This document shows, in pieces, positions 61,463 through 64,000 of a stretch of 64,000 bases of DNA. A program made the position numbers and the translations under genes. The notes under the pieces are model-generated. The model searched no databases, was not told where the DNA came from, and saw only the letters and a program-made list of their open reading frames with translations. The stretch is taken from NCBI RefSeq assembly GCF_054482525.1, contig NZ_CM137006.1; one strand, given 5' to 3'. Position 1 is the first letter of the stretch, and each line of letters begins with the position of its first letter.

Positions 61463-62476
61463 TTATTCAATACCTGTGGTGACTGTAAAAGTGCGCGTTT
61501 GCTGCGGTGCAACCTGAATCAGCGTGCCATTACGTTGCGCGGCAAGATACCCCTCAGGTCGACAGGTTGCTGGTAATGCAAAGGCGGCTACCTGTTGCTC
61601 GCCGTTATAAAGGATCCAGCGTGTCACATAATTTAGTTCAGCACTGGAGAAACGAGTAACAAACGTAGTGCCATCGGGAGCGATCATGCGAAACTCTGGC
61701 TGATCTGTGTAAGCGTCCAGTTTGTCTGCAAAGAAGACTATTTCTGGATCATAAAATTCCGGTTGATTCAGCGTCGACAGAGAGGCTTCTCCCTGCATAA
61801 TCCGTTGATTAAACGCCAGCCACTGGGCGGTGGGATTAACATGCGAAGGTACTGATTCACGCAACCTTAATATTTCGTCCGGTATATTCTGGCTGAACGT
61901 AGCATTTGGTATATATGCATAATTCATGTGGCACATATATTGTAGTGGCATATCTACAGAAGCCAGATTGGTTACGGCCATCTTAATATCGAACAATGTA
62001 GAGGATTTGTGAAGGACCACTGTTGGCTGAGCCAGATAATGATGCCCGAACCCCATTACATACTCGTAACGCCCGGTAAGGCGTAACATATCTCCCTCTA
62101 ATTCCATCCATGCTTCATCCATCGCGGCACAGGCCATTTCACCGTGTAGCAGATGAGTATCTTCCGCAGATGGGCAGCCATTAGCCAGCAAACCTGAATG
62201 AAAGGCAAAACAGCCATAGGTCTCTATCACCTCTGTCGCCGGTTTAGGCTGGCGAAACATATTGCACATGGTGAGACTGTGTCCATCAAATTGCGCATCC
62301 CAAATCATCTGCCCCATCCAGGGAAGAATAATTAAATGTCCACGACTGTTTGCAATTTTAAGCCCCTCGACACCACTGTCATAGCGAAAAGACGTGACAG
62401 TAAAATCACTATTTTCCAGCAAGATACGAGGTTTTTCGCCAAAAAGCGCCCGCCACAAATAAATACGCGTACTCAT
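61463..62476 (-). CDS. deoX: DeoX-like protein (337 aa; mutarotase-like protein of deoxyribose operons)
   Basis: Follows a FucP-like permease and a pfkB-type kinase in the order of the deoK-deoP-deoX operon of Salmonella and pathogenic E. coli; assignment from gene order and size. Confidence 0.45.
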   Translation of the reverse strand: MSTRIYLWRALFGEKPRILLENSDFTVTSFRYDSGVEGLKIANSRGHLIILPWMGQMIWDAQFDGHSLTMCNMFRQPKPATEVIETYGCFAFHSGLLANGCPSAEDTHLLHGEMACAAMDEAWMELEGDMLRLTGRYEYVMGFGHHYLAQPTVVLHKSSTLFDIKMAVTNLASVDMPLQYMCHMNYAYIPNATFSQNIPDEILRLRESVPSHVNPTAQWLAFNQRIMQGEASLSTLNQPEFYDPEIVFFADKLDAYTDQPEFRMIAPDGTTFVTRFSSAELNYVTRWILYNGEQQVAAFALPATCRPEGYLAAQRNGTLIQVAPQQTRTFTVTTGIE

Positions 62477-62487
62477 AACGATTCTCC

Positions 62488-63804
62488 TCAGGACTCTGTG
62501 ACTTCAGCCAGTGCATTACGTACTTTGCTTTCACGCCAGAAGTAGACACCGACATAGACAAAACAGAGCATAGAAACCAGGAATGAAAGCTGTAGTGAGT
62601 GGAACATATCTGCAATATACCCCTGAATTGCCGGAACCACCGCTGCGCCAACAATAGCCATAACAATGACTGCTCCTGCCATTTCTGTATGTTGGTTATC
62701 AACTGTATCCAGTGTTCCTGCATAGATCGTCGCCCAGCAAGGGCCAAACAAAACACTTACCAGGACGGCGACATAGACCGCGCTGAAACTTGGAGCCAGT
62801 GCAACATATGCCAGAAACAGCGCCCCTATAACGGAATAGAGAATTAGGACTTTTTCCGGATTAAAACGTGTCATAAGGATGTTGGCTATAAACTTGCCAA
62901 TAAAGAAGCAGGCAAAGCTGTAGACCATGAAGTTTGAAGCATCACGTTCGTTGATATCGCCCAACTCCAGTGCCAGACGGATGGTAAATGACCATACTGC
63001 GACCTGCATACCCACATAAAGGAATTGAGCCACAATACCACGACGAAAGCGCGAATTTTTAGCCAGATAGCGCAGCGTATCCATTGCTGACGGGCGTTTA
63101 TGGTGACTTGTCTGTGCCACTTTACAGGTTGGGAAGCGGGTTAAAAGGAACAACACCATGACCACAACAAGAATCATAATCATATACTTATACGGTTCAA
63201 GGGTGTTCTCTAACATCAGCACCTTAAAGTTGTGAATTTGCTCGGCGTTCATTCCGGACATCTGCTTCTCAAGGCTTTCCCCCTCGGAGAAAACCAGATA
63301 TTTGCCCAATAAAATACCAGACGCAGCACCAATCGGATAAAAGGTCTGGCTGATATTGAGCCGCAATGTGGCATAGGCTTTTGGACCGATCATTGAACTG
63401 TATGTGTTCGCTGCAGTTTCAAGGAAACTCAGGCCAATCGCAATCGCAAAAATAGCTGCAAGGAACATAGTGTAGGTTGCCATATGCGAGGCAGGGAAAA
63501 AAAGTGTACAACCACCAATATACAGCGTCAGGCCAATTAAAATTGCCACCTTATAACTGGTCTTTTTAATCACAAGGGATGCTGGTATTGCAATTAAAAA
63601 ATAACCTCCATAAAATGCGCTCTGCACCAATGCTGAAGCAAAGTTACTTAGCGAAAATACACTTTTGAATTGAGTGATTAATATGTCATTTAATGCAGCT
63701 GCGCATCCCCATAGCGGGAATAAACACGATAACAAAATAAACTGGAACAAGGGAGTCTTATTCAGATACCCATCAGGCATCTGAATGATGTTTTTATCGT
63801 TCAT
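62488..63804 (-). CDS. deoP: FucP-family MFS sugar permease, DeoP-like (438 aa)
   Basis: 12-TM MFS protein with FucP-like N-terminus; between kinase and deoX-like genes. Confidence 0.6.
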   Translation of the reverse strand: MNDKNIIQMPDGYLNKTPLFQFILLSCLFPLWGCAAALNDILITQFKSVFSLSNFASALVQSAFYGGYFLIAIPASLVIKKTSYKVAILIGLTLYIGGCTLFFPASHMATYTMFLAAIFAIAIGLSFLETAANTYSSMIGPKAYATLRLNISQTFYPIGAASGILLGKYLVFSEGESLEKQMSGMNAEQIHNFKVLMLENTLEPYKYMIMILVVVMVLFLLTRFPTCKVAQTSHHKRPSAMDTLRYLAKNSRFRRGIVAQFLYVGMQVAVWSFTIRLALELGDINERDASNFMVYSFACFFIGKFIANILMTRFNPEKVLILYSVIGALFLAYVALAPSFSAVYVAVLVSVLFGPCWATIYAGTLDTVDNQHTEMAGAVIVMAIVGAAVVPAIQGYIADMFHSLQLSFLVSMLCFVYVGVYFWRESKVRNALAEVTES

Positions 63805-63832
63805 AGTGCTACCTTTAACTGTGCAGGATGAT

Positions 63833-64000
63833 TATTCGTTTAAGGTTAAAAATTCATTAAATTGTTCAATACTCGGATAAGATGATTGCGTACCTTTCCC
63901 TGTGACGCTGAAAGCGGCAAAGAGAGCGGCTTTTTTCAAAGCGGCTTCAACATCACCGCTTTGAACATAATAATGGGAAAAGCAACCAATAAATGCGTCA
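63833..64000 (-). CDS. deoK: 3' end of a pfkB/ribokinase-family sugar kinase gene, DeoK-like (partial, runs off the window)
   Basis: Minus-strand translation ends ...DAFIGCFSHYYVQSGDVEAALKKAALFAAFSVTGKGTQSSYPSIEQFNEFLTLNE*, typical of pfkB-kinase C-termini. Confidence 0.45.

Follow-up and report, generated by a model that had tools for sequence, protein, structure and literature searches.

The three genes at the edge of the window, by which we mean the entire 64,000-nucleotide stretch of DNA analysed here, raise the questions of which sugar they serve and how they came to be there. RefSeq (PGAP) gives them the names rbsK, fucP and 'aldose 1-epimerase family'; the preliminary description took them to be deoK, deoP and deoX. 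Sequence comparison with characterised systems points to deoxyribose: with a probability of about 0.93, the window edge represents the promoter-distal part of deoKPX, belonging to the deoQKPX 2-deoxy-D-ribose regulon, which would be carried as cargo of a composite genomic island that starts at tRNA-Ser(GGA) (27.4 kb). The deoKPX deoxyribose operon is a system already known.

According to the ORF list of the window, deoK, deoP and deoX form a close tandem array on the minus strand (Table 1), with Shine-Dalgarno-like GGAG/AAGG motifs in both spacers and no terminator-like site found inside the operon. The lengths and coordinates originally given for the two complete ORFs are exact, and the pfkB kinase recognised next to them is represented in the window by its C-terminal 55 codons plus the stop (63832..63999, about 18% of the gene, reading DAFIGCF...LTLNE*). 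The whole window is 100% identical to the corresponding DNA of E. coli EC_J_9 (NZ_CP075062.1), from which we read the full deoK as well as deoQ and the promoter region, the latter two located outside the window. There, the kinase gene is full-length (306 aa) and lies opposite a divergent DeoR-family regulator, that is, the remainder of deoK and the deoQ gene are both found past 64 kb, where the preliminary description expected them.

Table 1. Features of the operon and of its right-hand flank in window coordinates
Feature	Coordinates	Strand	Remarks
deoK 3' end (deoxyribokinase), codons 252-306 + stop	63832..64000	minus	runs past window edge
deoK-deoP spacer, 27 nt	63805..63831	minus	Shine-Dalgarno-like AAGG at 63812-63815
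deoP, 438-aa MFS permease of FHS (fucose/glucose/galactose) type	62488..63804	minus	complete ORF
deoP-deoX spacer, 11 nt, GGAGAATCGTT	62477..62487	minus	holds deoX ribosome-binding site
deoX, 337-aa DUF4432 protein, galactose-mutarotase-like fold predicted	61463..62476	minus	complete ORF
hairpin relic GCGCTTATCGCTAAGGTAAGCGC	61430..61452	minus	ancestral deoX/uhpA intergenic terminator; stem kept, U-run gone

The identification is carried primarily by the kinase, which matches the published DeoK of E. coli AL862, 55989 and CFT073, strains with reported growth on deoxyribose, at 304 of 306 positions (sequences taken from the supplement of PMC6452873); the two mismatches look like OCR errors. DeoK is also ~96% identical to its characterised counterpart in S. 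Typhi, with about 12 real differences, and 94-95% identical to the orthologues from Salmonella arizonae and diarizonae, compared with 37% identity to RbsK of E. coli K-12. The first DeoK residue encoded in the window, Asp252, pairs in the alignment with Asp255, the catalytic aspartate of RbsK in E. coli, and the PfkB fold is common to the two enzymes. In the identical genome, the residues aligned with N14 and N20 of RbsK, which are encoded outside the window, are Met10 and Tyr16, respectively. Met10, which replaces the ribose-O2-binding Asn14 of RbsK, is said to have been recognised by Tourneux in 2000 as the specificity residue. E. coli K-12, which has no deoK, grows on deoxyribose only after evolution of RbsK, and the enzyme evolved on this sugar changed at N14 and by N20Y, the latter substitution recreating Tyr16 of DeoK. 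In Salmonella, deletion of deoK (STM3793) abolishes growth on deoxyribose.

Taken at face value, the RefSeq labels would describe a fucose or ribose cluster consisting of a ribokinase, an L-fucose:H+ symporter and an aldose 1-epimerase. The same names appear in all the complete E. coli genomes listed with annotation (about 45 of the ~1,600 carriers, covering the full range of identities), and two family models concur: the kinase passes TIGR02152 'ribokinase' (373 vs a cut-off of 300, scored with a 94%-identical Salmonella protein), and DeoP, besides matching Pfam MFS_1, passes the broader model TIGR00885 ('fucP'; 324 bits vs a cut-off of 280), which accounts for its RefSeq name. In the same vein, ribose is phosphorylated by DeoK in vitro, and the enzyme can sustain growth on this sugar (PMC13432705). 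However, the ribokinase model PRK11142 is missed (254.9 bits vs a cut-off of 341, with a 94%-identical Salmonella DeoK scored), as is PRK10133, the model of true FucP (285.7 vs 427 bits for DeoP itself), and DeoP is 96% identical to Salmonella DeoP vs 36% to K-12 FucP. Furthermore, neither fucI, fucK and fucA nor rbsABCD are adjacent, and the kinase is the published DeoK, with Met10 where RbsK has Asn14, which leaves the fucose or ribose interpretation with a very low probability. Fucose or ribose as the primary function is ruled out by the identity to characterised DeoK. Sequence matches and gene order thus agree with the deo assignment of the preliminary description, given that identity to the real FucP and RbsK amounts to only 36-37%; it is in the RefSeq product names that fucP and rbsK appear. 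From its family, DeoP is inferred to be a deoxyribose:H+ symporter, a substrate specificity that has never been directly demonstrated (PMC10926698).

Under the deoxyribose assignment, free deoxyribose would be imported by DeoP, an MFS symporter of the FHS type judging by its family, and phosphorylated at the 5-OH by the PfkB kinase DeoK to yield deoxyribose-5-phosphate, a reaction demonstrated biochemically for the ~96%-identical Salmonella DeoK. The core-genome aldolase DeoC, encoded outside the window, would then split deoxyribose-5-phosphate into glyceraldehyde-3-phosphate and acetaldehyde. The deoK-deoC route, which is non-oxidative, was the only deoxyribose pathway previously known, and the pyranose is the predominant form of deoxyribose in solution (PMC6365646). 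DeoX most likely would speed ring opening, converting the pyranose, which has no free 5-OH, into the furanose that the kinase can use, a role analogous to those of RbsD in the ribose operon and FucU in the fucose operon. The deo system would accordingly resemble rbsDACBK and fucPIKU of K-12, the operons in which rbsD (pyranase) and fucU (mutarotase) are located, in combining a transporter, a ring-form or anomer converter and a kinase. The kinases and transporters are paralogues, DeoK and RbsK within the PfkB family and DeoP and FucP within the FHS family, whereas the presumed converter DeoX, a DUF4432 protein with a predicted galactose-mutarotase-like beta-sandwich fold, does not belong to the RbsD/FucU family, of which the annotated rbsD and fucU products are members. 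Also unlike the rbs and fuc systems in this comparison, the deo system would need no isomerase because DeoC acts on the phosphorylated sugar.

The DeoX sequence matches DUF4432 only in Pfam (E=3e-16). The AlphaFold model of the protein (pLDDT 84, pTM 0.86) is most similar in a Foldseek search to PDB 3TY1 (E 6e-14, TM 0.79), followed by GalM structures (E 1e-10 to 1e-6), with a probability of 1.0 against GalM of B. subtilis, L. lactis, human and yeast. DeoX is accordingly predicted to adopt a galactose-mutarotase-like beta-sandwich fold, resembling that of GalM and of 3TY1, a putative aldose 1-epimerase (KPN_04629) that, like DeoX, is uncharacterised in substrate and activity. The invariant residues His111, His183, Asp251 and Glu308 of DeoX occur in the same order as, and at positions near, the catalytic residues His104, His175, Asp245 and Glu309 of GalM when compared along the sequence rather than by superposition, and the local motifs are alike (LHGE vs LHGG; CHMNY vs NHVYF); residues 90-113 of the model, several invariant ones included, have pLDDT below 50. 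This similarity does not extend to a sequence-level relationship with GalM or Aldose_epim: a search of DeoX for Aldose_epim (PF01263) gave no match even at E<=10, whereas GalM itself scores 306 bits, and hhalign of DeoX against GalM gave a probability of 1% and no usable alignment. A sequence and profile search of the PDB with DeoX returned nothing beyond 24-residue similarities to formylglycine-generating enzyme at chance level (E about 1), and a literature search on the function of DeoX or DUF4432 found nothing relevant. In the light of the predicted fold and the operon context, DeoX may be a deoxyribose ring-form converter.

Transcription of the operon would proceed from the 305-bp deoQ-deoK intergenic region outside the window, controlled by DeoQ, a repressor of the DeoR family, and probably also by CRP. 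In EC_J_9, deoQ is a divergent 260-aa DeoR-family CDS that lies 305 bp upstream of deoK and is 83-84% identical to its Salmonella orthologue; the respective intergenic region of Salmonella is 324 bp long. Conserved TGTTA-N6-TAACA palindromes match three times, with at most one mismatch, in the 20.7-kb locus, vs 0.6 matches expected, and two of the three fall inside the 305-bp region. The control region also contains a CRP-like block, TCGCGATC..AGTCACA, conserved in 10 genera, and both the palindromes and the CRP-like box are shared between Salmonella and the E. coli cassette. The canonical DeoR operator TGTTAGAATTCTAACA was absent at up to three mismatches, and scanning for consensus promoters and terminators gave no informative result.

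The K-P-X order, with deoX always downstream of deoK-deoP, is present in all 80 related loci from Enterobacterales and Pasteurellaceae, Salmonella included, and a divergent deoQ accompanies it in 72 of these. The likeness to Salmonella pointed out in the preliminary description is borne out by this order and by protein identity, which to the arizonae and diarizonae orthologues is 96% for DeoP and 82-83% for DeoX. We found no recombination breakpoint that would explain the difference between DeoK and DeoP (~95%) and DeoX and DeoQ (~83%) in identity to Salmonella; because identity is uniformly lower across DeoX and DeoQ, the gap reflects constraint. Between two E. coli allele classes ~2% apart, dN/dS is 0 for deoK, 0.07 for deoP, 0.07 for deoX and 0.20 for deoQ. 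Given that identical proteins are encoded on more than 1000 contigs and that dN/dS of the three genes within E. coli is between 0 and 0.07, we conclude from the sequences that the deoKPX ORFs are real, conserved genes rather than chance ORFs.

The surroundings of the operon could be taken to suggest otherwise, namely that the island is degraded and the operon within it non-functional and in decay. It is embedded in wreckage that includes a frameshifted IS200 tnpA, a truncated IS600, fragments of DUF3927 and hypothetical-protein genes, an ilvN pseudogene and a decayed tRNA; the deoX terminator is devoid of its U-run in this type of island, and the dN/dS of deoQ is the highest among the four genes. 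Nevertheless, decay is hardly credible given that deoK, deoP, deoX and deoQ are all full-length and free of frameshifts, that deoK, deoP and deoX have the low dN/dS values given above, that two islands with ~2-3% divergence in DNA encode one and the same DeoK protein, and that 1,597 of the 1,623 carrier genomes (98%) retain at least 80% of the region. By these sequence measures, deoKPX is intact and under selection.

The deo operon is present in 1,597 of 5,426 complete E. coli genomes (~29%), and the carriers span human, livestock and wildlife sources as well as river water and wastewater, with NCTC 86 and Nissle 1917 among the commensal or probiotic strains. Because so many genomes from such diverse sources carry the operon, the suggestion in the preliminary description that it marks a host-adapted strain finds no support as a diagnostic; the presence of the operon is a weak indicator of the kind of strain and predicts neither pathotype nor host.

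In Salmonella enterica (Tourneux 2000, Christensen 2003), the four deoQKPX genes agree with those described here in size (306, 438, 337 and ~260 aa), in order and in having the regulator transcribed divergently, and they belong to the core chromosome, where they are located between ilvN and uhpA. In E. coli, by contrast, they form a ~4.7-kb cassette in a genomic island, accompanied by a truncated ilvN relic and, in other strains, by a relic of uhpA. The deoK operon is also island-borne in AL862, 55989 and CFT073 and in the LAC PAI of LEE-negative STEC, and the known deoK PAIs, like the present island, contain Ag43/Cah-type adhesins and IS debris alongside it. Those islands are reported at pheV, whereas the present one is at tRNA-Ser(GGA) beside ghrA. 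The present 25-kb configuration was found, over at least 80% of its length, in only 128 of the 5,426 genomes, and in a second E. coli strain the cassette instead adjoins pgtABCP. Downstream of deoX, the hairpin relic matches the region between ilvN and uhpA of K-12 over 24 bp at 96%; it folds at -14.1 kcal/mol and is followed by CAUUCUGCC, vs U7-8 in K-12, Salmonella and L083. On this sequence match, the hairpin relic marks where the transferred cassette ends on its right-hand side.

The flank relics also bear on the source of the cassette, which according to a view relayed in the literature recently moved from Salmonella enterica into E. coli. The 94-96% protein identities of DeoK and DeoP and the presence of relics of ilvN and uhpA, the very flanks of Salmonella deoQKPX, fit this scenario. 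However, the ilvBN/uhp context is common to many Enterobacteriaceae genera and is therefore not specific to Salmonella, and at four-fold degenerate sites the deo genes are only 35-39% identical to those of S. arizonae, compared with 47-62% for the adjacent core genes ilvB, ilvN and uhpABCT between K-12 and Salmonella; dS between the E. coli cassette and Salmonella is saturated. With ilvN of K-12, the ilvN relic shares 90.9% identity, whereas the 11 further loci that could be aligned, from several Enterobacteriaceae genera, reach 74-82%, with Salmonella at 77%; the uhpA' relic is too short and conserved to tell the donors apart (87% vs 85%). A recent transfer from Salmonella is disfavoured by the ilvN relic, whose best match is the ilvN gene of E. 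coli itself, and we consider such a transfer unlikely. A search with a chimeric probe found a copy of the cassette at the native ilvN site in 0 of 5,426 E. coli genomes. We tentatively propose, at somewhat below even odds for the proposal as a whole, that DeoX is a 2-deoxy-D-ribose pyranase/mutarotase, a non-homologous analogue of RbsD/FucU that feeds furanose to DeoK, and, separately, that the E. coli cassette (ilvN'-deoQKPX-uhpA') came from a chromosome of the Escherichia lineage, not from Salmonella, and became island-only after it was lost from the native ilvN/uhpA site.

The naming problem has practical consequences: for at least one pangenome metabolic model it is reported that deoK could not be distinguished from rbsK, nor deoP from fucP, and that the accuracy for growth on deoxyribose was 27% (PMC10926698). 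The two sets of genes can be told apart by at least 90% identity to DeoK and DeoP vs about 36% to RbsK and FucP, by Met10 together with Tyr16 in the kinase, and by a neighbouring DUF4432 gene. The predicted phenotype of the strain is growth on deoxyribose from degraded DNA; according to work cited in PMC6455142 and PMC7924626, deoxyribose use helps gut colonisation in mouse models. Beyond that, the locus is of modest scientific interest, which resides in the flank relics, as these show the source of the island cassette, and in the biochemistry of DeoX, whose proposed role, if true, would be the first function for DUF4432.

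The genes at the end of the window are correctly identified, as the preliminary description had proposed, as the deoKPX operon, a system that is already known. The 337-aa and 438-aa ORFs and the kinase frame at the edge are all present on the same strand (see the table), with short spacers of 27 nt (deoK-deoP) and 11 nt (deoP-deoX) that both contain a Shine-Dalgarno-like motif; a scan of the spacers in the window revealed no terminator-like site between the genes. Over its final 25 kb, the window is 100% identical to the genome of E. coli EC_J_9 from swine intestine (NZ_CP075062.1), where the annotated tRNA-Ser lies within 1 nt of its window position. 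In this genome, both the rest of deoK and the deoQ-type regulator that had been anticipated beyond 64 kb are found: the frame cut by the window edge encodes an entire 306-aa PfkB kinase, and a 260-aa DeoR-family regulator is encoded on the opposite strand, 305 bp upstream of the kinase.

Coordinates of the deo cassette, its flank relics and other elements (window positions unless stated; L001, locus extending past the window edge; L083, E. coli TUM10828 locus)
Feature	Position	Strand	Remark
deoX, 337-aa ORF	61463..62476	-	ORF read in window
deoP, 438-aa ORF	62488..63804	-	ORF read in window
deoK 3' end, last 55 codons and stop	63832..63999	-	frame runs off window edge, upstream of deoP/deoX
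Terminator hairpin relic, deoX side	61430-61452		stem survives, U-run gone
Frameshifted ilvN fragment, nt 50-291 of ilvN	L001 13543-13790		just beyond window, beside deoQ; deoQ-side flank of E. coli island copy
uhpA-side flank relic of TUM10828	L083 ~8870-8990
deo cassette beside pgtABC-pgtP	L083 1829-8052		phosphoglycerate transport system
Composite genomic island	27453-64000		after tRNA-Ser(GGA) adjoining ghrA
Ag43/Cah autotransporter	36623-39469
Rfam IS102 RNA match	39488-39724	-	immediately upstream of Ag43/Cah gene
Type I restriction-modification system	~45375 to ~53994		followed by truncated IS600, then deo cassette
Anaerobic C4-dicarboxylate transporter	55902-57200
Asp/Glu racemase-family gene	57266-57985
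LysR-type regulator	58336-59274		divergent; annotated HypT
Frameshifted IS200/IS605 tnpA	59392-59851	-	within 59392-60205
STnc490, full-length Rfam match	59861-59984		143 bits
STnc100, full-length Rfam match	59991-60205		136 bits
Decayed tRNA-like element	60624-60691	-	Rfam tRNA 30.7 bits, no ARAGORN call
STnc130, full-length match	12439-12573	+	inside opgH (mdoH), opposite strand

The identification is supported by both kinase sequence and gene order. In a PMC6452873 supplement, which reproduces the DeoK sequences of S. Typhi and of E. coli AL862, 55989 and CFT073, strains with reported deoxyribose growth, the published E. coli DeoK equals the encoded kinase at 304 of 306 positions; both mismatches look like OCR errors, one of them reappearing in every comparison, and about a dozen positions differ from S. 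Typhi DeoK. Alignment with RbsK places DeoK Met10 and Tyr16 at Asn14 and Asn20, and Asp252 at the catalytic Asp255. Met10 is the residue that, reportedly in the work of Tourneux in 2000, tells deoxyribose from ribose. When K-12 independently evolved growth on deoxyribose, RbsK gained N20Y and N14 changes, and deletion of S. Typhimurium deoK (STM3793) abolishes growth on this sugar.

A homolog scan with the 337-aa DeoX as the query, limited to one genome per species, yielded 80 loci, including those of S. enterica subsp. arizonae and diarizonae, Citrobacter, Enterobacter, Raoultella and Leclercia, and also Edwardsiella, Providencia, Yersinia and many Pasteurellaceae. Kinase and permease homologs are encoded immediately upstream of deoX, in the K-P-X order, in all 80 loci, and a divergent DeoQ homolog in 72. 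Identity to two Salmonella loci is 94-95% for DeoK, 96% for DeoP, 82-83% for DeoX and 83-84% for DeoQ; the drop in the latter two is uniform along both genes, with no sign of a recombination breakpoint. Between two E. coli allele classes that are ~2% apart, dN/dS is 0 for deoK, 0.07 for deoP and deoX, and 0.20 for deoQ, low values showing that the operon is maintained by selection although it is seated among pseudogenes.

In the accepted pathway, DeoK is followed by the aldolase DeoC, yielding glyceraldehyde-3-phosphate and acetaldehyde (PMC6365646). Profile matches assign DeoP to the FucP/GluP type of MFS proteins, and its family and linkage suggest that it imports deoxyribose; its characterization is noted to be incomplete (PMC10926698). 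In a ten-genus alignment of the deoQ-deoK intergenic region, located beyond the window edge, several blocks beside deoK are conserved, including the palindrome TAACATGnTAnTGTTA and TCGCGATCnnAGTCACA, a CRP-like site that departs from the consensus at two positions. Another palindrome, TGTTA-N6-TAACA, adjoins deoQ. These elements fit the regulation reportedly described by Christensen in 2003, namely DeoQ repression at several operators, DeoR cross-repression and catabolite control.

PGAP/RefSeq labels deoK as rbsK/ribokinase, deoP as fucP/L-fucose:H+ symporter and deoX as 'aldose 1-epimerase family' in every carrier genome whose annotation was listed, about 45 of the ~1,600 RefSeq genomes with the region at 61463-64000 of the window. 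These names arise because the proteins exceed the cut-offs of the broad TIGR equivalog models but fall short of those of the specific PRK models: DeoP scores 285 bits against the 427-bit cut-off of the FucP model. The labeling is consistently generic across the listed annotations, and simple discriminators exist; identities of only 36% to K-12 FucP and 37% to the true K-12 RbsK would separate the deo genes from their namesakes. In a 90%-identity protein collection, DeoK (306 aa) and DeoP (438 aa) share one 7,818-member cluster though unrelated, presumably a clustering artifact, caused for example by a gene call in which the two are fused or read through.

The suggestion that the operon marks a host-adapted strain was not supported, its presence not being diagnostic. 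Of the 5,426 complete E. coli genomes, 1,597 (29%) carry at least 80% of the length of the region; their sources are humans, pigs, cattle, poultry, dogs, a dolphin, a bandicoot, river water and wastewater, and the operon is reported in the commensal or probiotic strains NCTC 86, Nissle 1917 and EC185. Published work ties it to competitiveness and gut colonization.

The island has a CP4-type module, including CbtA/CbeA toxin-antitoxin genes, directly against the tRNA, where an integrase would be expected. Published deoK islands were reported at pheV. The transporter and racemase pair recalls the 'AspR-DcuA' module of the serX-inserted Shigella SRL island (PMC7545054). STnc490 and STnc100, sRNA families named in Salmonella, follow tnpA within 59392-60205 (-). 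In the decayed tRNA-like element, the T-arm and CCA end are intact and the anticodon loop reads CAT, but the anticodon stem is partly deleted; it resembles tRNA-Ile2 (ileX/ileY type) and may be left over from a previous island attachment site inside the composite island.

The deoQKPX genes adjoin ilvBN in Salmonella and roughly 34 Enterobacteriaceae loci, about 17 of which contain uhpA and uhpB downstream of deoX, so that the cassette lies between ilvBN and uhpABCT there. The intergenic stretch and terminator found behind deoX in Salmonella come directly after ilvN in K-12, which thus represents a clean empty site. Across the 5,426 complete E. coli genomes, the operon was not found once at this native ilvN/uhpA site. 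On its island, the E. coli copy is bordered by remnants of its chromosomal neighbors in other Enterobacteriaceae, the frameshifted ilvN piece beside deoQ and the terminator hairpin beside deoX. In TUM10828, the cassette is in a different island, beside pgtABCP, and it retains the whole terminator along with the opening ~70 nt of uhpA. The pgtABC-pgtP set is another one characteristic of Salmonella and is not known from K-12. A recent transfer of the cassette from Salmonella to E. coli is the view relayed in PMC5382810. The ilvN relic shares 90.9% identity with K-12 ilvN but only 74-82% with its counterparts in the other genera compared (Salmonella, 77%), which argues against such a transfer, as does the identity to Salmonella at four-fold degenerate sites, 35-39% for the deo genes vs 47-62% for the flanking core genes. 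Mainly on the basis of 242 bp of pseudogene, the comparison favors a donor that belongs to Escherichia or is close to it, or else an ancient mobilization. A useful by-product is that, through the flank relics, the cassette can be traced to an Escherichia-like genome and its ilvN/uhpA locus.

The only Pfam match of DeoX is DUF4432. A structure predicted from 46 homologs (pLDDT 84, pTM 0.86), with a poorly modeled loop 90-113 at the putative active site, gave as the top Foldseek match PDB 3TY1, a Klebsiella 'putative aldose 1-epimerase' (E 6e-14, TM 0.79), followed by genuine galactose mutarotases of B. subtilis, L. lactis, human and yeast; sequence methods detected no relationship. His111, His183, Asp251 and Glu308, invariant in the DeoX family, have the same order and nearly the same positions as His104, His175, Asp245 and Glu309 of E. 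coli GalM, with similar local motifs; their L. lactis GalM equivalents, H96, H170, D243 and E304, carry the mutations of the GalM crystal structures among the matches. Deoxyribose in solution is mainly pyranose (PMC6365646), a form with no free 5-OH for DeoK to act on, and the ribose and fucose operons encode converters of ring form or anomer, RbsD and FucU. Because of the fold, the invariant residues, the predominance of pyranose and this analogy, the most likely function of DeoX, at slightly better than even odds, would be that of a deoxyribose pyranase/mutarotase, a useful structure-based functional hypothesis for DeoX and DUF4432.
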